IMG/VR virus record: IMGVR_UViG_2870609773_000001
Coordinates: 1-64,000 of that record
From: a virus
Lineage: Duplodnaviria > Caudoviricetes
Length of the DNA stretch: 64,000 bases
Reading direction: 5' to 3' (one strand)
Numbering within the stretch: position 1 is the first letter of the stretch; the number at the start of each line of letters is the position of its first letter. Below are positions 3,160-63,998 of this stretch, piece after piece. The notes under the pieces were generated by a model that was not told the DNA's origin, searched no databases, and saw only the letters and a list, made by a program, of their open reading frames with translations. Made by a program: the position numbers and the translations under genes.

Positions 3160-3473
3160 GTCCTCTGATGACTTTCCTGCTTGTCATGCTCGCGCTGATC
3201 CTGGCGACCAATCGTCGCCAGGTCGGCAACGCCAAGACGCTGAGTGAGTTGTGGGAGCCGGCCCGCGCCAACGGGTGGGGCCGCGGCACAGCGCTGACGG
3301 TCGTCGGCGTGGTGGTGTTCGCGTTCAAGTTCACCGGCAGCGTCGCCCTGGTCGTGCTGACCGTGACTGCCAAGGCGATCGAGGTTCTGGGATTCATCGC
3401 CTCCGTGGTGCGGGAGCACCTGACCGACCTGCTCAACCCGCCTCTTCCGATCGGACGCGTGGAGGCAGCGTGA
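3156..3473 (+). CDS. small membrane protein
   Basis: Hydrophobic segments; coupled to both neighbours. Confidence 0.7.
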   Translation: MSPLMTFLLVMLALILATNRRQVGNAKTLSELWEPARANGWGRGTALTVVGVVVFAFKFTGSVALVVLTVTAKAIEVLGFIASVVREHLTDLLNPPLPIGRVEAA

Positions 3474-5659
3474 GCGAGAAGGCACGATCCGAGCACCTGC
3501 GGCTGATCCGCCACGGCGAGGACGCCCCCGACCTGCCCCTGTCCGAGGACGACGAGCACAAGGAGTTGGCTCTGCAAGGCGGCGGCGAGGTCGAGCAGGT
3601 CTACGAGGGCGAGATCGTCTCTGACGAGCCCGAACGCTCCCGGTTCCTGCCGTCCGTGGTCGTCGACAAGGTCACGGTGCTGCGGCCCAACCCTGCGGCC
3701 AAGAAGGTCGCACGCACTGCGGCCCAGCATGGCGCGCTGGTCCTGGCCGGCTGGCACTCCTGGATCGTCCGCCTGTGGAAGGGGCTGACGATCGGCCGGA
3801 TCCGCAAGCAGATTCGGATCGCGGACGCGACCGGCAACCTGGAGGCACTAGCCGTGTGGCTCGACAAGCTCGATGAGGCGAAGACCCGCCGCGGGGAGCG
3901 GCTGATGAAGCTGCCGCTGCTCGCGCTCAAGATGGCGATGCTGTCTGGTGGGGTCCTGCTCGGACTGCTGGTGCTACTGGTGCTGGTCGCGACACTCGTG
4001 TGGCTGACCGGCGCCGGCGAGTGGGTTGACGTGTGGTTGTGGCTCGGCGGCGTGCTCCGCTGGGTGATCGGCGCCCTGTCGGTCGCCTGGTCAGTGTTCG
4101 TGTTCGCCTGGCCGTTGCTGCTGGTGTGGGCCGGCCACCGTGCCGGGCGCGAGACCGAGGTAGCGCCAGCATGGGCCGTTGAGCCGGGCTCGGCCGATGA
4201 TAGCAGTGGCCGGGATCGGATCCCCGACGAGTCGGCGATCATCAACGCGCTCAAGCACCTGGGTATCGCCCCGCTGAACAAGGCGTTCAAGGCGGGCTGG
4301 AGACCGCGGATCGTGCTGCCGACCCAGCGTGACGGCGAAGGCTATCGGACCCAGTTGGAGCCGCCGCCCGGCGTCACCGTCGAGATGATCAACCAGAAGA
4401 AGTCCGTGCTCGCGCACAATCTCGTCCGCCTGCCGGTCGAGGTGTGGCCGACCGAGCCGAAGAAGCAGCCCGGCGTACTTGACCTGTGGGTGGCCGACCA
4501 GGGGTCGCTGACCGGCCCTCTGCCCGACTGGCCGCTGCTGAAGGACGGAACCGCCGACTACTTCGAGGGCGTCCCCGTGTCGCGGAACATTCGCGGCAAG
4601 ACCGTCATCGGGCTGCTGTTCCAGAAGAACTATGCGCTGGCGGGCATGATGGGCTCCGGCAAGTCCACGATGATCCTCACGCTGCTGCTGGGGGCCATCC
4701 TGGACTGGCTGGTCGAGGTGGACGTGTTCGTGTTCGCCACGAACGCCGATTACGACCCGCTCAAGCCCCGGCTGCGGACTCTGCTCACCGGCCCGGGTGA
4801 CGAGGTCGTCGAGGCGTGCCTGTTCCTGCTGCGCGACGCCTACGCCGAACTCAGCGTCCGCGGCAACGCGCTGAAGGAGCACGGCGCGCCCGCGGTGACC
4901 AGGGAACTCGCCGAGAAGGACGCACGGCTACGCCCGCGCATCATCGTCATCGACGAATGCCAGGCACTATTCCTCCACGAGGAGTATGGGGAGGAAGCCG
5001 AGGAACTGTGCGTGAAGCTGATGGGTGCCGCCCGCAAGTACGCCGTCACCTTGATCTTCGCCACTCCCGAGCCGTCGTCGGCGTCGCTGCCTCGCAAGCT
5101 GATGGCAGTCATCTCCAACAAGGCGTGCTTCGCCATCGGCGATCAGACGTCGAACGACGCGGTACTCGGCACCGGCTCATACAAGCAAGGCATCTCCGCC
5201 GTAGGGCTGGAACCGAAGACAGAGGAAGGGCCAGGCGACATCGGCACCTGCATGGCCACCGGTTTCCAGGCCAAGGCCGGCCTGCTGCGCACCTACTACG
5301 TGCCCTACGCCGAGATGGGCTCCGTCGTGGCACGGGCGATGGCGATACGCGAGAAGGCAATCCTCGGCGGCACCTCCTTCGACGATGAGAGGCGGGACCT
5401 GCTGGCGGACCTGCTTGACGTGATCGGCGCCGACCCAGTGCCGGCCGCTCAGGCGCTGGCCGCCCTGAAGTCCACGTACTCGCGGCATCGCCCCTACGCG
5501 CTGCTTCGCGACCGCCTGGAGCTGGTGCGCGAGCTCGATGCGCTCGGCGTCAAGGTGCCCTCGTCGAAGAACCGCCACCTCATCGATCCGATCACCATCC
5601 GTGGCCGCATGGCCGAGATTGCCGCAGCCGGAGCCGCCGACGAAGACGGCGCGGGTTAA
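3470..5659 (+). CDS. traB: FtsK/SpoIIIE-family conjugative DNA translocase (TraB-like)
   Basis: GTG start overlapping the upstream TGA; N-terminal TM block; Walker A GMMGSGKST; Walker B IIVIDECQ; small C-terminal domain. Confidence 0.88.
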   Translation: MSEKARSEHLRLIRHGEDAPDLPLSEDDEHKELALQGGGEVEQVYEGEIVSDEPERSRFLPSVVVDKVTVLRPNPAAKKVARTAAQHGALVLAGWHSWIVRLWKGLTIGRIRKQIRIADATGNLEALAVWLDKLDEAKTRRGERLMKLPLLALKMAMLSGGVLLGLLVLLVLVATLVWLTGAGEWVDVWLWLGGVLRWVIGALSVAWSVFVFAWPLLLVWAGHRAGRETEVAPAWAVEPGSADDSSGRDRIPDESAIINALKHLGIAPLNKAFKAGWRPRIVLPTQRDGEGYRTQLEPPPGVTVEMINQKKSVLAHNLVRLPVEVWPTEPKKQPGVLDLWVADQGSLTGPLPDWPLLKDGTADYFEGVPVSRNIRGKTVIGLLFQKNYALAGMMGSGKSTMILTLLLGAILDWLVEVDVFVFATNADYDPLKPRLRTLLTGPGDEVVEACLFLLRDAYAELSVRGNALKEHGAPAVTRELAEKDARLRPRIIVIDECQALFLHEEYGEEAEELCVKLMGAARKYAVTLIFATPEPSSASLPRKLMAVISNKACFAIGDQTSNDAVLGTGSYKQGISAVGLEPKTEEGPGDIGTCMATGFQAKAGLLRTYYVPYAEMGSVVARAMAIREKAILGGTSFDDERRDLLADLLDVIGADPVPAAQALAALKSTYSRHRPYALLRDRLELVRELDALGVKVPSSKNRHLIDPITIRGRMAEIAAAGAADEDGAG

Positions 5660-5820: not shown

Positions 5821-5913
5821 GCAGCGCACGAGACGCCCCCTCGACTGCACCTCCCAGACGGTCACTCGCGGTGGTTGCGGAGACCTCTCCCCCGATCTTC
5901 GGGAGGGGTGTCC

Positions 5914-5928
5914 GGAGCATCCCGCTCC
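5914..5928. promoter_or_regulatory. palindromic GGAGC-N5-GCTCC element after an imperfect hairpin, upstream of the HU gene
   Basis: Same motif and architecture at 6318 and 7253. Confidence 0.55.
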
Positions 5929-5952
5929 CCACACATCAGAAGGAACCAGATC

Positions 5953-6267
5953 ATGAACAAGACCGAACTGATCGCCGCCGTCGCCCGCCGGACCGGCCAC
6001 TCACGCCAGGCCGTCGCCGACGTCCTCGCCGGGATCACCGAGACCATCCAGGCCGAGGTGTCCGACGGCGGCGAGGTCGCCATCCAGTTCTTCGGCAGCT
6101 TCAAGCGCAAGCACACGCCGGCCCGTGACGGCCGCCACCCGCAGACCGGGCAGCCGATGCGGATCGGCGAGTCGTGGACGGTCAAGTTCGCGCCCGCTGC
6201 CGGGCTGAAGACCGCGGTCCGCGGGCGTGCCCGCTCCCAGCAGTCCCCGGTGTCCGCGGTGGCGTAG
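5953..6267 (+). CDS. HU/IHF-family nucleoid-associated protein
   Basis: MNKTELIAAVA...FGSFKRKHTPARDGRHPQTG...VKFAPAAGLK is the bacterial DNA-binding protein (HU) signature. Confidence 0.92.
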   Translation: MNKTELIAAVARRTGHSRQAVADVLAGITETIQAEVSDGGEVAIQFFGSFKRKHTPARDGRHPQTGQPMRIGESWTVKFAPAAGLKTAVRGRARSQQSPVSAVA

Positions 6268-7025: not shown

Positions 7026-7192
7026 GCAAGTCCGTTCCGCCTCTCGACCACCCTGTGCGGTGGGTCAACGGCGTGGCTCACGTCGCGATCCACTGCGGCG
7101 GCTGCGGCGAGACCGTCCGAGTGGTGGGCGTCACCACCACCGCAGGCGCTCTCGCCGAAATGAAGCGTCTCCGCATCCACCAGCACGACTGA
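7022..7192 (+). CDS. small CxxC hypothetical protein (56 aa, not in ORF track)
   Basis: GGAGG RBS; MSKSVPPLDHPVRWVNGVAHVAIHCGGCGE... Confidence 0.6.
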   Translation: MSKSVPPLDHPVRWVNGVAHVAIHCGGCGETVRVVGVTTTAGALAEMKRLRIHQHD

Positions 7193-7208
7193 GCGGCTGT
7201 TGCGGGTG

Positions 7209-7266
7209 CGCTCTCCTGACCCCCACTTCCCCGCGGGTCAGGAGAGCGGCCCGGAGCGTCCGCTCC
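7209..7266. promoter_or_regulatory. 14-bp perfect hairpin plus GGAGCGTCCGCTCC palindrome
   Basis: CGCTCTCCTGACCC/GGGTCAGGAGAGCG, then the palindrome at 7253-7266. Confidence 0.55.
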
Positions 7267-7298
7267 CTCAAGCCTCATCACACCGAAAGGACCTGATC

Positions 7299-7469
7299 AT
7301 GGGTCACGGTAAAGCCAAGAAGGTGGTCCTGTACGTCGCCGCCGGGTTCGCGCTGTTCTACCTGTTCTCTCGCCCCACCAGTGCTGCTGCTGCTGTGAAC
7401 GGCGTGTTTGACGGGATCCTCACGGGCGCCAACCAGTTGGCCGTGTTTTTCAACGCGTTCGTCGCCTGA
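7299..7469 (+). CDS. small membrane protein
   Basis: AAAGGA RBS; KKVVLYVAAGFALFYLFSRP hydrophobic pattern. Confidence 0.7.
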   Translation: MGHGKAKKVVLYVAAGFALFYLFSRPTSAAAAVNGVFDGILTGANQLAVFFNAFVA

Positions 7470-7583
7470 CGGGGGTGACTGTTGCGGGTGCTCGCCACCG
7501 CGGGGGCTGTGGCGGGCTTCCGGAGCAGTCAGCTCCACCTCGCCTCAAGGAGGCCAATCGTGGGTGATCGCGCGATCAGAAAC

Positions 7584-7766
7584 ATGCTGGTTCAGGAGTG
7601 CAGCGACGGCAGCTTTCTGGCTACGTTGCCCTGCCCAGTAGCGGGCTGCGGCGCGGACGCATCAATGACCAGCAGGAACAAGAACGGGCCCTACAACGGG
7701 GCGTGCGACAAGGGCCACACCATCGACGCGCCCTGGGCGAAGGAAGGCCCAGCGTCCGACCGCTGA
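7584..7766 (+). CDS. small Cys-containing hypothetical protein (start uncertain)
   Basis: CPVAGC...CDKGH; weak RBS. Confidence 0.45.
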   Translation: MLVQECSDGSFLATLPCPVAGCGADASMTSRNKNGPYNGACDKGHTIDAPWAKEGPASDR

Positions 7767-7833
7767 CCTTGCGAGCGCTCGCCACGACTTGGTGGGCGCC
7801 AGAGTAGCCACGCAACGAGAACGGAGACCTGTC

Positions 7834-8061
7834 ATGGGCTTGTTCAGCAACAAGAAGACTCCGAGCCCCGACCCGCCGCCGCTGCGGCGGAACCTGGTGC
7901 GCAACCTGCTCAAGCTCGGCATGACCTGGTACGGAGGCGACCCCGACGGCGACGACTTCGAAGCCAACCGAGACCGGTACTACCGGGCGCGGGCGAAGTG
8001 CACGAAAGCGGAGATCGACTACGTGGAGGATGCGCTTGAGCGGCACGGCTACCCGCCATGA
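7834..8061 (+). CDS. hypothetical protein
   Basis: GGAGA RBS. Confidence 0.65.
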   Translation: MGLFSNKKTPSPDPPPLRRNLVRNLLKLGMTWYGGDPDGDDFEANRDRYYRARAKCTKAEIDYVEDALERHGYPP

Positions 8062-8085
8062 GGCCACAACTCCGCACGCCAGGAC

Positions 8086-8217
8086 GTGACCGTGGCGGAA
8101 GCCCGCCCAGCAGCAGCCGTTGCCCTGACCGGGGTGGCCGCCCACATCACGGCCGAAACCGCCCGCCGCGTCGAGGAGTGGGCGGACGAGAAGTTCGGCG
8201 AGGAACCACCTCGTTGA
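8086..8217 (+). CDS. very small hypothetical protein
   Basis: 43-aa ORF filling the gap; AGGA upstream of GTG. Confidence 0.4.
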   Translation: MTVAEARPAAAVALTGVAAHITAETARRVEEWADEKFGEEPPR

Positions 8218-8280
8218 CCAGCACCCCTTGAGGGTGTCCACATATCGGCGCCCCCATCATCGACGAAAGGAGAAGAGCAC

Positions 8281-8430
8281 ATGTCGTCCGACTGGACCCA
8301 GGAAGCGGAAGAGAAGATCCGCGACGAAATCTCCAGATACCTGACGGCGCCCGATGCGCGCAGAGCGCAAGAGGCCATGGTGAGACTGCAGGAGATCAAG
8401 TCGGATCCGGCGTCACAGCAGCAGAGCTGA
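8281..8430 (+). CDS. small helical hypothetical protein (49 aa)
   Basis: AAAGGAGA RBS. Confidence 0.6.
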   Translation: MSSDWTQEAEEKIRDEISRYLTAPDARRAQEAMVRLQEIKSDPASQQQS

Positions 8431-8474
8431 CACCGGCCCGCACCCAGCACCGTTAGCGGTGTTCACATATCCAG

Positions 8475-8503
8475 CCCCGGCCGCCCGAACCTCGCGGCCG
8501 GGG
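8475..8503 (+). terminator. putative terminator closing the transfer operon
   Basis: CCCCGGCCGC/GCGGCCGGGG 10-bp stem followed by TCTTCT. Confidence 0.6.
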
Positions 8504-8631
8504 TCTTCTCATACGAACGCCCCGGCTTCCCCCTGCTAGCCGAGGCGTTCTGGTGGGTGGTCGATCCCATCGAACCCCATACCCGTAGGTCCGGATTGTA
8601 TTCGTTTGTCCGGTTTGCTTACTCTGTTGGC

Positions 8632-8841
8632 GTGACACGCTGGCGAGGACCCCGAGGCATCGAGATCGAGGTCATCGTGCTGAACGGCTACCAGCGCTTC
8701 AAGGTCACCCAAACCGTAGGGAAGCGCCGCTACCTGCTCGGCTACTACGGCAACCTGGCAGGCGTCCTCCACCACGTGGGCGACCTCGCAGACCTAGTCG
8801 AAGTGCTGGACTTCCCCGCCGACCGTCATGCCGCGTCCTGA
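8632..8841 (+). CDS. small hypothetical protein
   Basis: GTG start after a -10-like TACTCT; protein-like composition. Confidence 0.55.
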   Translation: MTRWRGPRGIEIEVIVLNGYQRFKVTQTVGKRRYLLGYYGNLAGVLHHVGDLADLVEVLDFPADRHAAS

Positions 8842-9122
8842 GGTCCGTCACCACGGGCCGCTTTCCTCAGTGCCATCTCCGCCTTCAGCACCGATTCCAC
8901 CTCGTCCCACCATGGCAGGTTTCGTAGCTCTTCCATGCGGTCCAGCCGGGCCATCCGTGCCCGGTGCAGCTCGTCTGCCAGGTCGTCTGGGATCTCCGCC
9001 TCGCCTGCGGCGACCGCACTCCCGGACGGCATGGAGGCGACGATGCGGTGCACTTCAGCGTCCGCTTCGTCGTACGCCCGCTGGGCAGCGATCACTTCTT
9101 CTGGGATGTCGAGGTCGGCCAT
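8826..9122 (-). CDS. helical hypothetical protein
   Basis: MADLDIPEEVIAAQRAYD...; possibly leaderless. Confidence 0.65.
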   Translation of the reverse strand: MADLDIPEEVIAAQRAYDEADAEVHRIVASMPSGSAVAAGEAEIPDDLADELHRARMARLDRMEELRNLPWWDEVESVLKAEMALRKAARGDGPQDAA

Positions 9123-9172
9123 AAACGGGATCCTACGGACACGCCTGCGGGTGATCACGTACTGGGGCCACG

Positions 9173-9322
9173 ATGTCGCTCATGGATCAACAGCAGGCCG
9201 ACGAGCTCATGGCAGGCGCGAGGCTCCGGGCCGCGCTGGTGGACCACATCCAGGAGACCGAGCCTGTACCACCTGAGGTGAGTGAGGCGGTGCGGGAGTT
9301 GTACGGGGAGCGGTCAGCATGA
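9173..9322 (+). CDS. small hypothetical protein (49 aa), divergent from the previous gene
   Basis: MSLMDQQQADELMAGARLRAALVDHIQE... read from the sequence. Confidence 0.45.
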   Translation: MSLMDQQQADELMAGARLRAALVDHIQETEPVPPEVSEAVRELYGERSA

Positions 9323-9624
9323 CGCAGCGTGAAAAGAATCATCAGAGCCGAAACGATCATTGAAGGCGAGCATCATCTACCAGATGCGCAGAGAATGCAG
9401 TGATTTGCATCACATATAAGCCATCAATTTTGTAACGATGATCTTCGGAAGGCGCTTGCTTGGTGTGCCTATCACTTTAGGTTCATCCATGAGAACCCTT
9501 CGCGTCTGGTGGTGAATCGCTACAGAGCGGCGTTGATTCATGCATCCTTGTGCCTCACGAGTCAGCGCGGTTCAGTGTGCGTTAACGGGAACGCCGCCGC
9601 GTCATGCTTCGGGGGAGGCGCGCG

Positions 9625-11508
9625 GTGAGCCGCCGTTTCAACCAATCCCAGAGGGCCGCCCTCTTCCTGGCTACGAACGGCCGCTGCGCACGCTGCGGTG
9701 AGGAGCTACAGCCAGGCTGGCACGGCGATCACGTCATGCCTCACTCCAGAGGCGGCGCTACGGACGTGACCAACGGTGAAGCGTTGTGCCCCGGATGCAA
9801 TCTCCAGAAAGGGGATCGCATGAGTCAGCTCAGGGCTTGGCAAGAGGACGCCCTCAGGGAGTACAGCCTCTGGACGCCTCGTGAGGGCAACGGCTTCCTC
9901 GTCGAGGCCACCCCTGGCGCGGGGAAGACAAGGCTGGCGATCGAAGTCGCCTGCCGGGCGCTGGCATCGGGGCGCGTCCAGCGCATCGTCATCGCCGTGC
10001 CGACCGCGCGTCTGGAAGGCCAGTGGGCCGAGGAGTTCGGCAAGCAGGGTGTCAGCATCAACCCGGGGTGGCAGGCCGCCGACGGACGTCTCGCCTCCGA
10101 CGAGCAAGGGTGCGCCGCCACATACGCGGAGATCGCCAAACAGCCGCAGATCTATCGCAAGCTCATCTCCGAGAAGCCAACCCTCGTCATCCTCGACGAG
10201 ATCCACCACTGCGGCGGAGACGATCGAGCATGGGGAGCTGGCGTCCGCACCGCCTTCCAGCCGGCCACCGCGAAGCTCCTCCTCTCGGGCACGCCCTTCC
10301 GGTCCGACAACGACGAGATCCCCTTCGTCAACTACGTGGATGGGGTCGGCGCCCCGGACTTCCGCTACGGCTACGACCGGGCACTGGCCGACGGCGTGGT
10401 CCGCGCGGTCTTCTTCCCGCGCCGCGGCGGCCTCATGGAATGGACCGCTCCGAACGGCGACTCCCGCAGAGCGACCTTCGAGGATCAACTCAACGACCGC
10501 GAGGCCGCCCACCGCCTGCGCACCGCGCTGTCGCCGACGGGCGACTGGCTGCCATCGGTGCTCAAGGAGGCCGACGCACAGTTGAGCGAGCTGCGAACGG
10601 TTGACCCGCAGGCCGGCGGCATCGTGTTCTGTGAAGACTCCTTCACCGCCCGCGAGGTCGTCAAGCTGCTCACCGCCCTCGGTCAATCACCGGTGCTCGC
10701 CATCACCGACGAGCCCGACGCGGATGAGAGGATCAAGACCTTCAAGTCCTCGACAGCAGCGTGGATCGTCACCATTCGCAAGGTCAGCGAAGGTGTCGAC
10801 ATCCCGCGGCTCCGCGTCGGCGTGTACGCCACCCCATGGATCACGGAGCTGTTCTTCCGCCAGGTGGTCGGCCGGCTCGTGCGAATCCGCCCCGGCGAAG
10901 ACGACCCGACCGCATACCTCTACATTCCTGACGACGCGAGACTCCGCGAGATGGCCGCGCAGATCAAGCAGCAGCGCGACCACATCCTCGACCAGCAGGA
11001 AGCAGAACTCCTCGGAGAGAGCGAAGCCAACGCCGGCCCCTCGGGAGAGCAGCCCTTGTTCTCCCTGTTCTCTCCGATCTCGGCCACACCCACCGACGAG
11101 GGCGTGATTGTCGACTCGGACACCATCACGCCGGTGGAACTGGCCAACGCCGAGCAGATCAAGCGCATGGACCCCACCACGGTAGCCATGCCGACGGCGC
11201 TCGTTGCCAAGCTGCTCCGCAATGCAGGCACAACCGCGCCGACCGCTCCAGCGCCCTCGTTCGAGACAACCGAAGCACCCTTCGAGCGCAAGGAGAAGCT
11301 GAAGAAGAGCAACAACACCGCCGCCCAGCGCATCGCCCGCGCCCTCGACATCCCCCACAGCAAAGTCAACGGGCACCTCAACAAGCTGGTCGGCGTGTCC
11401 GTATCGCGAGGCGTACGGCAGTGCAGCGAAGAGCAGCTCGAGCGTCGCCTGCGCTACGCGCAGCAGTGGCTCGCTACCGGCACTGCCCCCGGAAAGGAAG
11501 CCGAATGA
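9625..11508 (+). CDS. HNH endonuclease fused to SF2 (DEAD/DEAH, Res-like) helicase
   Basis: GGGGGAGG RBS and GTG; CARC...DHVMPHSRGGATDVTNGEALCPGCN (HNH); ATPGAGKT, DEIHH, SGTPFRSD, SEGVDIP, QVVGR helicase motifs. Confidence 0.9.
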   Translation: MSRRFNQSQRAALFLATNGRCARCGEELQPGWHGDHVMPHSRGGATDVTNGEALCPGCNLQKGDRMSQLRAWQEDALREYSLWTPREGNGFLVEATPGAGKTRLAIEVACRALASGRVQRIVIAVPTARLEGQWAEEFGKQGVSINPGWQAADGRLASDEQGCAATYAEIAKQPQIYRKLISEKPTLVILDEIHHCGGDDRAWGAGVRTAFQPATAKLLLSGTPFRSDNDEIPFVNYVDGVGAPDFRYGYDRALADGVVRAVFFPRRGGLMEWTAPNGDSRRATFEDQLNDREAAHRLRTALSPTGDWLPSVLKEADAQLSELRTVDPQAGGIVFCEDSFTAREVVKLLTALGQSPVLAITDEPDADERIKTFKSSTAAWIVTIRKVSEGVDIPRLRVGVYATPWITELFFRQVVGRLVRIRPGEDDPTAYLYIPDDARLREMAAQIKQQRDHILDQQEAELLGESEANAGPSGEQPLFSLFSPISATPTDEGVIVDSDTITPVELANAEQIKRMDPTTVAMPTALVAKLLRNAGTTAPTAPAPSFETTEAPFERKEKLKKSNNTAAQRIARALDIPHSKVNGHLNKLVGVSVSRGVRQCSEEQLERRLRYAQQWLATGTAPGKEAE

Positions 11509-12092
11509 CCGTGGATCTTCGTGTGGAGAACGACCACCTGATCACCGATCTCCGCGGCGCCGTCCACAACGGCGAATCCGGACTGGCCTACGTACCCCGC
11601 CTACTCAAGAAGGTGCTCGAGACCGAGGCGTGGCGGGAGCGATATGACGCCAAGTCTAGGAGCATCGTGGCGTTCAAGTCTTTCGGGGATTTCGTCACTA
11701 CCCCGGCTACCGAGGGCTTGGGAGCGTCGATGGATCTAATCGAGAGGATCGTTGGCACTGACGATCCGGAACTGCTGATTCTTTTGCGTACGGCCAAGGC
11801 CCGAGGTCGTGGGGCCCGCACCGACTTACTTGACGGTGAATCACCGTCAAGTCTGGCGGACGACACTACTGGTAGAGATGTTGCCCGCTTGGCTAGGGAA
11901 GCCCCTGAGGAACTTGCCGCGGTCCAGCGCGGCGAGAAGAGCGTCCACGCGGCCGCCATTGCGGCCGGCATTCGTCGACGCCGCATCCCTGTCCGCCTTG
12001 ATGATGCGTCATCAGCCCTCCGCAGCCTGCAGGCGAACAGTAGCCCGGAGTTCTGGGCCGAGTTCAAGCGGCTCGTGAAGGAATCCGAGTAG
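11505..12092 (+). CDS. helicase-coupled partner protein of unknown function
   Basis: ATGA overlap with the helicase; GRGARTDL and GEKSVHAAAIAAG motifs; more A/T-ending codons than neighbours. Confidence 0.8.
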   Translation: MTVDLRVENDHLITDLRGAVHNGESGLAYVPRLLKKVLETEAWRERYDAKSRSIVAFKSFGDFVTTPATEGLGASMDLIERIVGTDDPELLILLRTAKARGRGARTDLLDGESPSSLADDTTGRDVARLAREAPEELAAVQRGEKSVHAAAIAAGIRRRRIPVRLDDASSALRSLQANSSPEFWAEFKRLVKESE

Positions 12093-12112
12093 AGGCCGTA
12101 CAACACGAAGAA

Positions 12113-12148
12113 GCCCCCGCCCCGGTCCGTGAGGACCAGAGCGGGGGC
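12113..12148. terminator. hairpin between convergent helicase island and phage late genes
   Basis: GCCCCCGC/GCGGGGGC outer stem. Confidence 0.55.
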
Positions 12149-12254
12149 AAGGTCAGCCACCCAACAGGGGCCGATGCGTTGGTCGCGCACATCAAGTATG
12201 CGGCTGTTTGATTAGTTTGTTTCGCTGGCGCGCGGGCTACTCAAGTCCCGCAGA

Positions 12255-12545
12255 TCAGCCCTCTGAATGGGCATTTGATGGCTGCTCTACGTCTGGGTCA
12301 TCGAGCGGGATGCCGAGCAGCACGGCGACGTTGCGGGAGATGAGTGGCGGGTTGGCGGCCTTCGCTCTGGCCTCCAGATACATCCGGCCGATGTCCTCGA
12401 TGCTGTCCACCTTCAGCGGCTGGTTACGTCTCTCCTCTGCGCCGGCCCGCATGGCTTCGATCTCGTCCACGTAGAAGCGGTCTCCATTCGGATAGACGTA
12501 GACGTCTCGCCCGTCGTGCCACCTGACGATCTCGGGGTCGTCCAT
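12255..12545 (-). CDS. hypothetical protein
   Basis: GGGAGG RBS before ATG at 12545. Confidence 0.7.
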   Translation of the reverse strand: MDDPEIVRWHDGRDVYVYPNGDRFYVDEIEAMRAGAEERRNQPLKVDSIEDIGRMYLEARAKAANPPLISRNVAVLLGIPLDDPDVEQPSNAHSEG

Positions 12546-12599
12546 GCCACCTCCCGGTCTGCTCCCAGCATCTCCCAGTTCTGGGAGGTGGACGCGAAA

Positions 12600-12637
12600 G
12601 AGGGGCCGGGCCACCCCGAAGGATGACCCGGCCCCTC
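12600..12637 (-). terminator. hairpin downstream of holin
   Basis: GAGGGGCCGGG/CCCGGCCCCTC 11-bp stem. Confidence 0.55.
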
Positions 12638-12709
12638 ATGGCATGGCTCGCCGCCCGCAGCAGCAACGAGACGATGCCTCCAGACGGCGCTTCAGCGCCT
12701 CTGGCTGGC

Positions 12710-13060
12710 TCAGCGTACAGCCGGCTTCGGCGACACGTTCTGCCGCACGAACATGCTGGCCGCCATGGCGACGAACGCCATGATGGCCGCCGTCTGCTCA
12801 TCCGACAGGGCCAGACCGAACACCAGCGCCACCGTGATGGCCGCCTGAGCGAAGCCCAGCACCGCCGAATGGATGGAGCTGCCGCCGTCCGCGGCCCGGG
12901 TGACGATCGCGGTCCACACGCCGATCGCCGCAGCGAAGATGGCGTTCAGGGCGCCTACCTGCTCCTGCGTGAGAGGCAGCACGAACGCCGTCAGCATCTG
13001 CAGACCGGCGCTCAGGAAACCCAGGATGACCGCGGGCTCGCGACCAAAGATCGTAGGCAT
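12710..13060 (-). CDS. holin
   Basis: IFGREPAVILG N-terminus typical of actinophage holins; about 4 TM segments; downstream of the endolysin. Confidence 0.8.
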   Translation of the reverse strand: MPTIFGREPAVILGFLSAGLQMLTAFVLPLTQEQVGALNAIFAAAIGVWTAIVTRAADGGSSIHSAVLGFAQAAITVALVFGLALSDEQTAAIMAFVAMAASMFVRQNVSPKPAVR

Positions 13061-13070
13061 GAGGGCCTCC

Positions 13071-13613
13071 CTAGTTGACGGTGTAGCCGCCGTTCCAGTC
13101 CCACGACTTACTGGCCACCTGCGTGGCGCCCGAGGTCAGCCACACCGAGTCGGCGTCGTTGTTGAGGAAGTGGCCGGAAGCTCCGCAGTCGACGTCGCTC
13201 TTGGCGTACAGCCGGTACTCGGTGCCGTTCTTGTAGTTGCCGCCCCACCGGGAGCCGTTGAACACGGTGACGGTCTCGCCGGGCTGCAGCATCGCGGCTG
13301 AGCCCTGACCGGGCAGGCCGGTGACCGTGTACTTGTTGCAGGTGTGCGGGTTCGTGTTGTTCTTCGACCAGTTGTCCTGGACCACGAGACCGTCGACGTC
13401 GACCGGTGCACCGCCCGTGACCTTGAAGGTGACGAACTCGCGGTTCCGGTTGGCCCATGTGTCGCTGCCCATCGCGTCCGTGCCGACCTCGACGATCGTC
13501 AGGGCGCCCGCAGGCAGGTCCAGGGCGGACGTGGAGGCCGAGGCCGGGCTGCCTGCGAGGCCAGCAGCGGCGACGACGGCAGCGAACAGAAGCGCGCTCT
13601 TGTTGAGACGCAT
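13071..13613 (-). CDS. secreted lamin-tail-domain-like protein
   Basis: Signal peptide ending PASA; NREFVTFKVTGGAPVDVDGLVVQD and LQPGETVTVFNG resemble the LTD motif. Confidence 0.7.
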   Translation of the reverse strand: MRLNKSALLFAAVVAAAGLAGSPASASTSALDLPAGALTIVEVGTDAMGSDTWANRNREFVTFKVTGGAPVDVDGLVVQDNWSKNNTNPHTCNKYTVTGLPGQGSAAMLQPGETVTVFNGSRWGGNYKNGTEYRLYAKSDVDCGASGHFLNNDADSVWLTSGATQVASKSWDWNGGYTVN

Positions 13614-13823
13614 GAGGATGCTCTCCTTGAGAGGTGAATACAGAAGAAGCGCCCTCGCACCTGCGGGGACGCTTCACGTGAGCCTTGAATACGGCTCGTT
13701 AGTTGGCCTCGTCGATGAGGCTCGGAATGCGCCCGTCTCCGGGCTCGTTCTCCGCGGGCTCGGGATGCCGCGGAAGTAGGGATGGGTAGAGGGTGTGCCA
13801 CCAGCGCAGCCACAGGCCGTCGC

Positions 13824-14624
13824 TCACGACACCCTCGCCAAGGCGGCCCACGTCAGAGGACCGACCAGGCCGTCCGAGTCGAGCTTCTTCAGCTTCTGGA
13901 AGCCCTTGATGAGCTTGACGAACTCATCGTCGTACCCGGTGCGGTCCAGCCACTCCTTCAACCCCGCCGCGGCGTACACAGCCTCAGGCAGATAGCCGCG
14001 GGCGTTCAGCAGGCCGCGCGCCGTCTTGACGTCCCAGTTGTCGTCCCCGGGCCGCAGCAGGGGCAGATCCTTCACAAGCTTCTCCGTCCAGCTCAGGTCG
14101 TCGGCCGGCGCCGCGGGCTCGCCACGCAACAGCGCGGCGACGTCCCGGCGGAAGTTGTTCATGTTGATCGAGTGAGGGTCGGGCTTCGAGGCGTTGACCT
14201 CCTTGTGCCCCTTCACGGTGGACACCGGCAGACCGAACTCGCGGCACAACTCAGCGCACAGCCGCTTGTAGGCGTCGAGTTGCACCTTCGGCCATGGCGT
14301 CCGGCCGTCGTTCTCCGCCTCGATGCCGATGGACCGGCTGTTGGTGTGCCCCAACGACAGGCTTGGTGCGTTGTGCCAGCACCGGCCTGCGGCGACGATG
14401 AAGATCCGGCCGTCGCGCCTCAGCCAGATCTGGGAGAGCGGACCGTCCAAGCCTGGTCGTCCGTCTCGGACCACGTGCATGTCGTTCCAGCCCGCGGTGT
14501 GGTGGCAGACCACCCCATCGACCTCTTGAAGCGGACCGTGGCCGCGCGTCTTCCACCCCGCCACCTCTGTCACGGGGCAGCCCGTACGCCGGGCCACCTT
14601 GGCGAGTTGCGTCAGGTAGGGCAT
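13824..14624 (-). CDS. endolysin: N-acetylmuramoyl-L-alanine amidase with C-terminal peptidoglycan-binding domain
   Basis: VVCHHTAG, SIGIEAEN, VKGHKEV amidase motifs; C-terminal DGLVGPLTWAAL. Confidence 0.92.
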   Translation of the reverse strand: MPYLTQLAKVARRTGCPVTEVAGWKTRGHGPLQEVDGVVCHHTAGWNDMHVVRDGRPGLDGPLSQIWLRRDGRIFIVAAGRCWHNAPSLSLGHTNSRSIGIEAENDGRTPWPKVQLDAYKRLCAELCREFGLPVSTVKGHKEVNASKPDPHSINMNNFRRDVAALLRGEPAAPADDLSWTEKLVKDLPLLRPGDDNWDVKTARGLLNARGYLPEAVYAAAGLKEWLDRTGYDDEFVKLIKGFQKLKKLDSDGLVGPLTWAALARVS

Positions 14625-14944
14625 CACGCCTCCTTCCGCGTGTGCTCGCGGCGCTTCTCGCGCCAGGTCTTGAGGATGATGAGGAGCCGCCAGCCGAGCA
14701 CCACCGGTACGCCGGCGAACGCGATGGACCGCAGCGTCCGGATCAGGTCGCTGTCCGGGATCCACACCCGCAGCGCCCACAGCGCCAGGACGGCTGCCAG
14801 GACGGATTGGAACGCCATCACGTGCCTGCCGCCAGGCGTCTCCCACCAGCGGGCCAGCAGCGCCTGAGCGGCCACGCAGGCGAGCGCGAGCAGCGACGTC
14901 ACGATCAGGAGGACGCTGCCGATGAGGTACAGCTCGTCATGCAT
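14624..14944 (-). CDS. putative holin-like membrane protein
   Basis: About 3 TM segments; coupled to the endolysin start. Confidence 0.7.
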   Translation of the reverse strand: MHDELYLIGSVLLIVTSLLALACVAAQALLARWWETPGGRHVMAFQSVLAAVLALWALRVWIPDSDLIRTLRSIAFAGVPVVLGWRLLIILKTWREKRREHTRKEA

Positions 14945-36624: not shown

Positions 36625-38190
36625 TCAATAGGAACTGATCTCGAACGCGTCCAACTCGTCGTCCAACTCGTCCGCCTCGACGATCAGATCTCCGGCGAGG
36701 ATCGGGGCGAGCAGCATCCGGTTGATCGCCTGGGTGCAAGCGTCAACCTGGTCATCGTGTGATCCGTTCGGGAACGCGGCGTGCTCGTCCCGGAAGCTGC
36801 CGACCCACGGGCACAGTTCCGGGGCCGGCAGGTAGACGGATCCGGCCTCGATGAACGGGGTGACCGCGCGAGCGCGAGCCTCCTTGCTGCCGTCCGGCTC
36901 GACCGGAACCAGGCCGGGCACCTGGCGGCGCAGCGAGTTGATGACCGCGGTGCCGTTTGCCTTGTCCTCGACGAGTTTGAGCGTGGCCTGGGGCCACTTC
37001 GCTGCCATCTCCCGAAGGGCGGCACACGTCGCGGTGAAGGACAGCCGTTCGTGCACTTGGTCCAGCAGGAACAGTTCGAGGCCGTACCGCGCCCACACCT
37101 GACCCACAACGTAGTCGGAGCCGTCCGTGTCCTTGAACGCCATGTCCCACGACATGGCGACCTCGTCAGCGCCTGGCGCCCAGCAGGAGCCGTCAGGGCG
37201 TTCGATCCACCGCGGCGATGTGTACTCCCGCCACCAGTCGCGCTGGAATATGTCGCCAGCGGCAGGTGTCGGCCGTCCCTGGTAGAGGGCCGCCCACACT
37301 CGGGAGCCGACAGCGACGCGCGTCTGTCTCCACTGTTCGAGGCTTCGACCACGGGCCGACACCATGAACTCGCCCGGCTCGCGGCCGAGCGGGTCGGTCT
37401 CGCCCTTATTCGGGTCGTGGTCAGCTTGCGCCGGGATGTTGAGGACCTTCCACCGATGGGCGTCTTCAGCGGCGAGGACCTTGCCGGCCAGGTCCTCTTC
37501 GTGCCAGCGCGTCAAGATGATGACCACTGGCGCACCTGGAGCGAGCCGGGTGTTCGCTACCGCCTGCCAGAACGACCAGACGACCTCGCGCCACGCCTTA
37601 CTGTCGGCGTCCCGCATGTCCTTGATCGGGTCGTCGATGTAGAGCATTTCGGCTGGCTTGCCGGTCAGGCCGGACGTGATTCCGACACTACGGACGCCGC
37701 CGCGGTGGCCGTCGATACGCCAGCGGCGAGCGGCGCCGTTGTCAGGGGCGATGCGCAGTCCGAGATCCAGCGTGTCGTCGGTGCCGTCGTTCGAGATGAT
37801 GTGGTTGCGGATGTTCCGCCCGAACTCGTCGGCGAGGTCTTGGGCGTAGCAGGCGATCGCGATCCGCAGGTCTGGGTTGCGGGTGAGCATCCACAGCGGG
37901 CCGATCGTCGTGACGCGGGTGGACTTGCCCTCCTGTGGCGGCATCGTGATGATGAGCCGATCGCAGCGGCCTTCGGCCACCTCGATGAGTGCCTGATCGA
38001 TGAGGGTCAGGGCCGGTGTTTGGATGGTCGTCGGTTCGATCGCTGCAGCGAGGTGCCCTGGCGTCTCCCACTGCGGCCTTGTGGTGACCTTGCGTTTGCG
38101 GGCGGCGGTGCGGAGTGTCTTCAGCAGCCGCTCCTGCGCAGGGAGCGGCCATGTCCGCCAGTCGGGCGGCAGCGTGGCGAGCGTGGTCAT
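36625..38190 (-). CDS. terminase large subunit
   Basis: MPPQEGKST Walker A; IDDPIKD; SWDMAFK; HDDQVDA nuclease motif. Confidence 0.95.
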   Translation of the reverse strand: MTTLATLPPDWRTWPLPAQERLLKTLRTAARKRKVTTRPQWETPGHLAAAIEPTTIQTPALTLIDQALIEVAEGRCDRLIITMPPQEGKSTRVTTIGPLWMLTRNPDLRIAIACYAQDLADEFGRNIRNHIISNDGTDDTLDLGLRIAPDNGAARRWRIDGHRGGVRSVGITSGLTGKPAEMLYIDDPIKDMRDADSKAWREVVWSFWQAVANTRLAPGAPVVIILTRWHEEDLAGKVLAAEDAHRWKVLNIPAQADHDPNKGETDPLGREPGEFMVSARGRSLEQWRQTRVAVGSRVWAALYQGRPTPAAGDIFQRDWWREYTSPRWIERPDGSCWAPGADEVAMSWDMAFKDTDGSDYVVGQVWARYGLELFLLDQVHERLSFTATCAALREMAAKWPQATLKLVEDKANGTAVINSLRRQVPGLVPVEPDGSKEARARAVTPFIEAGSVYLPAPELCPWVGSFRDEHAAFPNGSHDDQVDACTQAINRMLLAPILAGDLIVEADELDDELDAFEISSY

Positions 38191-38200
38191 GCTCACCTCG

Positions 38201-62904: not shown

Positions 62905-63173
62905 CAGGGGCCGTCCTTCTGGTTGTGCCGCGTCGGGCGAGGCAGGTTCGGGAGCTCGGCCCGTAACCGGCGCGGCGTCATGTCGCGGCGGCGAAGGTGC
63001 GCGGCCACCTCGGGACGGCAGGTGGGGCACGGGACGGCGTCGTCAGTGTCGTCGCGGTCCACCCAGCCGTTGGTGCAGCCGACATGCGTGCACTGGCAGG
63101 AGTTCCAGGGGCAGGGCTTGTACTCGTCGCGGATGTCTTGGGCCTGCTGAGGGTCTGGCGGGAAGCGCGTCAC
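62901..63173 (-). CDS. Cys-rich (Zn-binding) hypothetical protein
   Basis: CQCTH..C...GW...PCPTCRP; GTGA overlap. Confidence 0.65.
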   Translation of the reverse strand: MTRFPPDPQQAQDIRDEYKPCPWNSCQCTHVGCTNGWVDRDDTDDAVPCPTCRPEVAAHLRRRDMTPRRLRAELPNLPRPTRHNQKDGPW

Positions 63174-63799
63174 GATGGCCTCCGGCGGTCCGGACCGGTG
63201 AGTGGCACGAGCGTGCACATCTCGGCGAGGCGGGAGGCGCTGCGCTCCCCCACATGCTCGGCGAGCGAGCGTGGCGGCAGGTTCGATGTGACGATCAGCG
63301 GCAAGCAGCGGGAGTATCGCTCGTCGATGACCTCGTAGAGCTTCTCCTGCGTCCACTCGGACGGCTTCTCGGCGCCGATGTCGTCGATGAACAGGAGGCG
63401 GGCGTTCTGGCAGTCCTCGACGACCAGCCGGGCATCGTTGACTCCAGGCCTGAGCTGATCAAGCAGCGCCGTGGCGCGAACGGTGTGCACCGTGGGCCCG
63501 AAGCGGATCGTGTCCCACGTGTCGTAGCGGGCGGCTCGCGGAACGGTCTCCGTGTTGCGGCACCACTCCGCCAGAGCGGTGAATCCGAGGTGGGTCTTGC
63601 CCGTCCCGACAGGACCCGTCAGGTACAGCCCGCCGGCACGGCGGCCAGCTTTCGCCCAGGCCCGGACTTCCTCGGGGATCGGGATCTCAGCCTGGAAGCG
63701 CGGCGGGACGTAACCGCGGACGGCTTGTTCGAGCTGCCAGCGCTTGTATTCGTCCGGGTCGCTGTGGGGCCCGAACTCGGGGGTGTCACCAGCCTGCAC
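63170..63799 (-). CDS. DnaC/IstB-like ATPase (helicase loader)
   Basis: GPVGTGKT Walker A; LLFIDDIGAEKPSEW; LIVTSN; RSASRLAEM. Confidence 0.92.
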   Translation of the reverse strand: MQAGDTPEFGPHSDPDEYKRWQLEQAVRGYVPPRFQAEIPIPEEVRAWAKAGRRAGGLYLTGPVGTGKTHLGFTALAEWCRNTETVPRAARYDTWDTIRFGPTVHTVRATALLDQLRPGVNDARLVVEDCQNARLLFIDDIGAEKPSEWTQEKLYEVIDERYSRCLPLIVTSNLPPRSLAEHVGERSASRLAEMCTLVPLTGPDRRRPS

Positions 63800-63998
63800 G
63801 GTATTCCTCCTCGGTGAATTGCTGTGGGGTTGAGCCGGGGGACGGCGCGTCGTTTCGGACAAGAGCCAGTCGCGGGGCGGGCTCGTCGAGCCAGCACTCT
63901 TTGTTCAGCCACGTGGCCGGGTTTTTGATGTAGCCGCGCAACACGTGGGGGTCGGTGTCGGCGTAGAGCTTCGCTGCGTCGAAGAGGATCTGGACGTC
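63786..63998 (-). CDS. C-terminus of phage replication initiator (truncated by window)
   Basis: YIKNPATWLNKECWLDE motif; directly upstream of the DnaC-like gene. Confidence 0.75.
   Translation of the reverse strand, partial: DVQILFDAAKLYADTDPHVLRGYIKNPATWLNKECWLDEPAPRLALVRNDAPSPGSTPQQFTEEEYRAGW

Follow-up and report, generated by a model that had tools for sequence, protein, structure and literature searches.

What is the function of a predicted HNH nuclease that is fused to a superfamily 2 (SF2) helicase and followed, in the genome of a tailed phage, by a small gene of no familiar kind? The two genes in question lie near the left end of a 64,000-nucleotide stretch of DNA, here called the window (positions 1 to 64,000 of the IMG/VR record IMGVR_UViG_2870609773_000001; Duplodnaviria, Caudoviricetes), which corresponds to G000:C1:11777150-11841149 of a 12.9-Mb Nonomuraea chromosome and falls inside a prophage-like element over 90 kb long. 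An initial annotation had read them as a candidate undescribed two-gene defence or anti-competitor system. We find that helicase and partner are one coupled, conserved two-gene unit and that actinobacterial phages and related mobile elements carry this unit as a self-contained module that moves horizontally. At the protein level, its description as a motor of RadD/XPB type driven by ATP and fused to an HNH nuclease, together with a stoichiometric helical partner that bears a basic domain, is well founded. As to its biological role, we lean, tentatively, towards help in replication and recombination through the processing of branched DNA, and weigh this below against a role in defence and two further explanations.

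The fused enzyme and its chromosomal relative

The domain make-up of the larger gene and its intact catalytic motifs can be demonstrated directly. It occupies a single open frame (9586-11508) in which Pfam places an HNH domain (PF01844) followed by ResIII, DEAD and Helicase_C, and the in-frame fusion of HNH to an SF2 helicase seen in the initial annotation is borne out by these matches and by motif conservation. The HNH match (E 3.7e-11, 43.4 bits against a cut-off of 21.4) places the N-terminal part in the HNH superfamily, while ResIII (7.4e-14, 52.4 bits, cut-off 22.5) and DEAD (30.2 bits, cut-off 26) place the remainder in SF2; the HNH part also matches endonuclease VII families (phrog_1035, 1.1e-10; PF02945, 0.0047). 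With the HNH residues numbered by the 634-amino acid (aa) reading of the frame, C28, C31, D42, H43, C62, C65 and N66 are fully conserved, and N57 almost fully, in 36 homologues reaching down to 40% identity, the zinc ligands being C28, C31, C62 and C65. The motor motifs ATPGAGKT (Walker A), DEIHH, SGTPFR, VSEGVDIPR and FRQxxGRxxR are likewise invariant or nearly so in these homologues. Such invariance at this distance is far more than would be expected by chance, and the retention of both sets of motifs argues that nuclease and motor activities are each under selection.

The motor core is most similar to those of repair translocases. A search of the family profile against solved structures gave archaeal XPB (6.9e-21), Rad25 and RadD (1.5e-13) as the best matches, and the AlphaFold 2 (AF2) model (predicted local distance difference test score, pLDDT, 83) has two RecA-like lobes, for which Foldseek returned RadD (1.5e-15) and XPB-Bax1 (1e-12) first, followed by SNF2, Type ISP and HsdR motors. 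Towards the C-terminus the model has helices at 445-475 and 559-625, in a domain with only sub-threshold helix-turn-helix (HTH) matches in Pfam. RadD (YejH of E. coli) and archaeal XPB thus have the closest motor cores by both profile and fold, and XPB works with a nuclease, Bax1 (PDB 6jde, 6p4f), although this is a separate protein of another fold; unlike in RadD and XPB, the HNH domain is here fused at the N-terminus, the C-terminal domain differs and the partner has no counterpart in those systems. The enzyme is not an orthologue of either, with 36.9 bits in the RadD model (NF053632) against a cut-off of 720 and a structural identity of 16-19%.

The gene starts at GTG 9625, behind the ribosome-binding site GGGGGAGG, where an 87%-identical relative (L003) has ATG. 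The upstream ATG at 9604 was rejected as the start, since a 1-nt indel in L003, just before the position of the GTG, breaks the frame from that ATG, which is therefore not conserved in frame. Public annotation begins the gene at an internal methionine, giving 562 aa in this genome and 565 aa in Nonomuraea sp. PA05, and PIS_093 of phage PIS 136 (L001) is likewise annotated from an internal methionine, at 67475. As a result of such calls (P0001, P0003, P0004 and PIS_093) the HNH domain is missing from the annotated proteins, even though the frame is open and conserved.

Other origins for the HNH domain were considered. Its insertion into a helicase gene as an intein or homing element was rejected as the principal explanation because the fusion, like its catalytic residues, is kept throughout the family. 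A packaging-associated HNH was also rejected, the terminase being 25 kb away and the terminases of relatives having separate small HNH genes nearby. A divergent form of the enzyme, 860 aa long (L013:7347-9929), combines HNH and ResIII with an insert weakly matching the YbcO nuclease; it still precedes a partner homologue, of 260 aa, with ERF and YqaJ genes after it.

The initial annotation had also pointed to a resemblance to actinobacterial Rv2917-type helicases, which normally lack a nuclease, and the same genome does contain an HNH-less chromosomal paralogue of that kind. This protein of 599 aa (G000:C1:10560092-10561888; L035:9090-10889, minus strand) is 37% identical to the helicase over residues 75-622, that is, over the motor and the entire C-terminal domain, and has neither an HNH domain nor a partner gene. 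Its guanine plus cytosine (GC) content at third codon positions (GC3) is host-like at 0.96 and its neighbours are housekeeping genes; all 15 genomes sampled from the class have it, as do 34 of the 201 genomes of a phylum sample. Rv2917 is listed as 'SdrA, SF2 helicase' (PMC2587704), and the paralogue appears to fit this Rv2917/'SdrA' kind. A quick tree, rooted at its midpoint, places the HNH-less clade (support 100) among the mobile forms that bear an HNH domain, which tentatively suggests that the paralogue may be a domesticated mobile-element helicase.

The partner and the two-gene unit

The adjacency of the two genes is seen well beyond the window. In about 26 of 28 IMG/VR loci, whose GC contents range from 0.49 to 0.68, the gene immediately upstream of the partner is that of the helicase, and this order recurs in phage PIS 136 (PIS_093, PIS_094), in contigs L002, L049, L051 and L052, the first three of which are large phage contigs, and in three genomes of the same family. 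Here the stop codon of the helicase gene and the start codon of the partner overlap as ATGA (11505-11508), preceded by GGAAAGGAAG. The identities of helicase and partner to the window pair co-vary (Pearson r 0.89, largely from the closest relatives; Spearman 0.48, p 0.05), and the genes are found apart in a few loci, with the enzyme lacking this partner in L048 and L050 and a partner-like gene standing alone in L058. The claim of an undescribed two-gene unit holds to the extent that the unit is real and conserved and that no described system was matched in PADLOC, Pfam, PHROGs or NCBIfam; literature searches found no description of the pair.

The atypical codon usage noted for the ATGA-coupled partner is also real. 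Its GC3 is 0.70, compared with 0.867 +/- 0.035 for 18 reference genes of the window, and rare codons make up 7.7% of the gene against 2.3% of the reference genes. The gene contains one TTA codon (in the context ...GAC TTA CTT GAC...); in Streptomyces-type actinomycetes TTA codons can link expression to the bldA tRNA.

The family to which the partner belongs is large. A word search found 96 homologues of 170-217 aa, and a partner profile run against 1.84 billion representatives reached 3,865 clusters (50% identity) at E <= 1e-3 and 1,683 at E <= 1e-10, nearly all of about 190-210 aa among the matches listed. The AF2 model (pLDDT 84.6) consists of two helical domains, an acidic one (1-100) and a basic one (121-195, pI 10.2), joined by a disordered linker (103-118). 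No match to the partner was found in Pfam (42 members scanned), PHROGs, NCBIfam or PADLOC; a profile search of the PDB gave only a chance annexin match (E 0.03), and fold searches gave Foldseek E-values above 2 and VIA-align wide Z-scores of at most 6, within noise for helical proteins. Its assignment to a known family was accordingly rejected. No longer, fused forms of the partner were found, which is weak evidence. For the ParB-like resemblance first suggested, the sole lead is a weak Atlas score of 0.84 to a cluster with 16% DUF3102 members. The further suggestion that the partner is a regulator or antitoxin is pure conjecture. The partner has no family or fold match, and the enzyme occurs without it in L048 and L050.

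The unit also appears to have control signals of its own, as the initial annotation had noticed in an A/T-rich upstream region and a closing hairpin, both of which are real features (Table 1). The region at 9330-9560 is the lowest-GC 230-bp stretch of the 64-kb window (GC 0.472; mean 0.673, standard deviation 0.033), is conserved in blocks with L003 and is likely to be the promoter and operator of the unit. Within it, the arms of the inverted repeat GTGAT-N4-ATCAC are conserved in L003 and the spacer differs. Scans of 8400-12700 gave no consensus sigma-70 promoter match and no Rfam match. The hairpin at 12113-12148 folds with -40.4 kcal/mol (z -4.08) and has a T-rich tail on the minus strand.

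Table 1. Features of the unit and of the surrounding prophage (window coordinates unless marked G000:C1)
Feature	Position	Strand	Remarks
HNH-SF2 helicase fusion gene	9625..11508	+	627 aa from GTG; Pfam; phrog_16 DNA helicase, 7.4e-32
HNH nuclease domain (CxxC ... DH ... N ... CxxCN)	9685..9819	+	PF01844, residues 28-72
SF2 motor core, RadD/XPB-like	9826..10947	+	conserved motifs, profile against PDB, Foldseek
C-terminal helical domain of helicase	10948..11505	+	shared with chromosomal HNH-less paralogue
Partner gene	11505..12092	+	195 aa
Ribosome-binding site GGGGGAGG	9611..9618	+	6 nt before GTG 9625; identical in L003
A/T-rich upstream region	9330..9560	+	GC 0.472; between divergent 110-aa gene and helicase gene
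Inverted repeat GTGAT-N4-ATCAC, candidate operator	9400..9413		read from the sequence
Hairpin, bidirectional terminator	12113..12148		16 pairs, 13 of them G-C; between converging transcription units
FtsK/TraB-like gene	3251-5659	+	
HU gene	5875-6267	+	small genes also on this strand
110-aa coiled-coil-like gene	8826-9158	-	
Holin gene	12710-13060	-	phrog_9752
Endolysin gene	13824-14846	-	assigned from similar genes in the endolysin position of related prophages, not from a family scan
Tail genes		-	
TerL gene	36625-38196	-	
Ant-like gene			further right, as is the DnaC-like loader
DnaC-like loader gene	63170-63862		
N6/N4 DNA methyltransferase gene	G000:C1:11844631-11846277		about 600 aa; same prophage, right of window
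C5 DNA methyltransferase gene	G000:C1:11847046-11848167		about 394 aa; beside the N6/N4 gene

The prophage, its variable slot and the spread of the pair

The left edge of the prophage-like element lies about 5.5 kb to the left of the window, and on the right it extends at least 20 kb beyond the window end; its genes have GC3 values of 0.75-0.90, against 0.92-0.97 for host genes. The pair sits where a plus-strand arm meets a minus-strand arm of lysis and tail genes. The TraB/FtsK-like, HU and 110-aa genes, which are common to the window and to a sister Nonomuraea prophage (G558), make up the arm converging with the lysis genes, and the element is thus tailed-phage-like with a conjugation-type translocase inside it. 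Its two methyltransferase genes are 3.5-7 kb to the right of the window and more than 50 kb from the pair; other pair-bearing elements with DNA methyltransferases are L001, L002, L049 and L051.

The accessory slot by the lysis genes, in which the initial annotation had placed the unit, is supported by holin and endolysin adjoining it on the other strand and by the variability of the slot within the lineage. The sister prophage (L072 = G558:C14:112000-131900) has a TraB-like protein 84% identical to that of the window and an endolysin 81-92% identical, with HU and the 110-aa flanking gene conserved, and the two elements differ in the interval from the endolysin to the 110-aa gene (L072 at about 7150-11650, window at 9317-13790), a swap site where G558 has, among others, a regulator gene of combined XRE-HTH and ImmA/M78-like type (10133-11476). 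In Microtetraspora fusca (L047) the pair stands after a holin and before an integrase arm. The pair is therefore demonstrably dispensable to this lineage of prophages; in the present one it is an optional, separately regulated add-on and not a core gene.

Mobility is equally evident. Two genera of one family share a cassette (L059:9903-12451 and L060:8082-10638) that comprises both genes and about 120 bp upstream. In cellular genomes the partner is rare, with 3 of 401 in a phylum sample and 5 of 151 in a family sample, and its Atlas clusters are 69-81% viral. The cellular contexts of the pair comprise an island with IS605 and a Panacea-domain gene, a neighbouring AAA_21 ATPase and, in L059, a neighbouring DUF2637 protein.

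In viral loci the neighbourhood is of another kind. In 19 viral loci the three genes to either side of the pair were taken into a census (113 proteins), which contained PDDEXK_1, DUF3799, DUF2800, ERF, RecT, Gp157, DUF669, DUF1376, DnaB, AAA_25 and Prim-Pol families, and the recurrent neighbours in viral loci are YqaJ exonuclease (9), DUF3799/PDDEXK (3), ERF (3) and DnaB (3); the remaining neighbours are repressors, an integrase, one methyltransferase and lysis genes. L051 has the order repressor, pair, two genes, DnaB, and L008 and L023 have the pair, one gene and then DnaB. No defence family was found among these 113 immediate neighbours.

Known systems and the role of the pair

The unit was compared with characterised systems that combine similar parts. 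The only PADLOC match was to PbeA of PbeABCD (1.8e-20), which is sub-threshold and limited to motor residues 71-434; phosphorothioate-dependent restriction of the PbeABCD/Dnd kind was rejected (TIGR04095 50.8 bits, cut-off 600), and no PbeB, PbeC, PbeD or phosphorothioation genes were seen near the unit, the neighbours being holin, endolysin, HU and TraB-like genes. The order of nuclease and then motor is shared with the restriction enzymes HsdR, Type ISP LlaBIII/LlaGI and the SauUSI type, and the motor resembles 3h1t, 4xqk and 7clg, but the partner is unrelated to PbeABCD or to restriction-enzyme subunits. The unit has no methyltransferase or specificity gene and scores 36 bits against a cut-off of 550 in NF046051, so that Type I, III or ISP restriction was also set aside. 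Among the known nuclease-helicase defence pairs in PADLOC 2.0.0 (Hachiman, Gabija and others), GajB reached only 0.0027 and neither HamA nor HamB was found; the partner had no match in that release, and post-2023 systems, checked by text search only, yielded none.

A different set of parallels comes from the helicase and nuclease pairs of phage replication and repair: SNF2/DEAD helicases occur with VRR-NUC nucleases, UvsW of T4 with endonuclease VII, and lambda has Rap/NinG. The unit is like these pairs in its position among exonuclease, annealase, single-stranded DNA-binding (SSB)-like and DnaB genes and in combining an SF2 motor with a predicted structure-specific nuclease, and unlike them in that the nuclease is fused to the motor and a conserved partner of no matching fold is added; a sequence relationship to them is seen for generic domains only. 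In addition, Ref of phage P1 is described as an HNH nuclease that acts on recombination intermediates (PMC4713147).

Taking the census of viral neighbours, the viral bias of the family and its repair-type relatives together, we consider a helper in replication and recombination the best candidate for the role of the pair, without regarding it as established. The RadD/XPB-like SF2 ATPase would translocate on or remodel DNA, and the N-terminal zinc-finger HNH (endonuclease VII-like) domain would nick or cut it. The 195-aa partner, presumably made in a fixed ratio with the enzyme through the ATGA overlap, may bind the enzyme or its DNA substrate through the basic C-terminal helical domain and so direct or restrain the nuclease. 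Its substrates would be intermediates of recombination-dependent replication, such as stalled or regressed forks, D-loops and junctions, a parallel to the way in which other replication-repair modules of phages pair a helicase with VRR-NUC or endonuclease VII. Complex formation, substrate and role are all inferred here, and several observations weigh against this reading. The two genera mentioned above share the 2,559-bp cassette only, at 83% identity and between unrelated flanks, and the GC3 of the cassette is low for its surroundings (0.68 in L060, where the genes around it have 0.85-0.96, and 0.65 in L061, as with the partner here). YqaJ, ERF and RecT were searched for in this genome and none was found, and the DnaC-like loader of the prophage is about 50 kb from the pair, which therefore lies here outside any recombination or replication module. 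The sister prophage does without the pair and fills the 4.5-kb slot with different cargo, the partner-less homologue L050 (48% identical) stands among Mrr- and GmrSD-type restriction genes, and a distinct endonuclease VII gene already adjoins the pair in L002.

Weight is given to a defence or anti-competitor system borne by mobile elements by the variable slot, the mobility of the cassette, its own regulation and its island contexts, and we regard such a function as possible if doubtful. The HNH-motor would then act as an ATP-dependent restriction enzyme, comparable with HsdR or the SauUSI type, and destroy incoming phage or plasmid DNA, with the partner as sensor, specificity subunit or inhibitor and the DNA of the element spared by modification or by the partner. 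A slot beside the lysis genes is occupied in two distant prophage lineages (the window and L003; Microtetraspora L047) and is filled with other cargo in G558; the unit has its own A/T-rich upstream region with a conserved inverted repeat and a terminator, moves as a 2.56-kb cassette and is sporadic (5 of the 151 genomes of the family sample). Island-like contexts (IS605, Panacea-domain gene, AAA_21 ATPase), the homologue within the Mrr/GmrSD island, a motor that weakly resembles those of PbeA, HsdR and Type ISP enzymes, and the methyltransferases on the same elements (this prophage, L001, L002, L049 and L051) all point the same way. No defence family, however, is among the neighbours in the 19 viral loci, where the nearest genes are those of recombination and replication; most members of the family are viral and belong to long early operons in phage contigs of 90-160 kb, the PADLOC matches are limited to the generic motor, and the island homologue L050 has no partner. 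Of the initial annotation's proposal, the coupled, conserved and undescribed pair stands, while the viral contigs give no evidence for a defence role. In its more specific form, an undescribed phage-carried system in which an HNH-motor effector, steered or restrained by a partner of new fold, acts against rival phages and plasmids, we judge the proposal somewhat unlikely.

An offensive or selfish function of the phage seems to us distinctly improbable. The nuclease-motor could be an early product that disables host DNA or host defences in lytic growth with the partner restraining it, or the HNH cassette could be of a homing type that spreads by cutting cassette-free genomes; phage HNH nucleases are often mobile, and the early-operon position beside repressor or switch genes, the transfer of cassette-sized units and the nearby methyltransferases are consistent with one or the other form. 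With homing, however, a cassette is normally regained at one fixed site across related genomes, and the contexts of this pair vary; a strictly conserved large motor and a partner would be superfluous for it. Least probable of all, and by our estimate very improbable, is that the pair belongs to the adjacent TraB-like operon (3251-5659 and the genes downstream of it) and serves conjugation-type DNA transfer. It follows the FtsK/TraB-like gene and HU and is read in the same direction, and in L059 it adjoins a DUF2637 protein, a kind often met on conjugative elements of actinomycetes. Between the pair and that operon, nevertheless, lie a divergent gene and a promoter region of 466 bp, the TraB-like gene and HU persist in the sister prophage where the pair is lacking, and most relatives have no TraB-like gene nearby.

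A helper in recombination-dependent replication therefore remains the role we tentatively prefer, and whichever role is right, the consequences would reach beyond this prophage. The partner family is very large and has neither a library model nor a recognisable fold, its companion nuclease-motor keeps every catalytic residue, and routine annotation hides the nuclease through the internal methionine start. Biochemistry on either the mobile enzyme or the chromosomal helicase of the Rv2917/SdrA kind, which is barely studied, would inform the other. Resolving the role of the pair would annotate thousands of phage genes, and would give either recombination-dependent replication in phages a further component or the catalogue of defence systems a weapon carried by phages.

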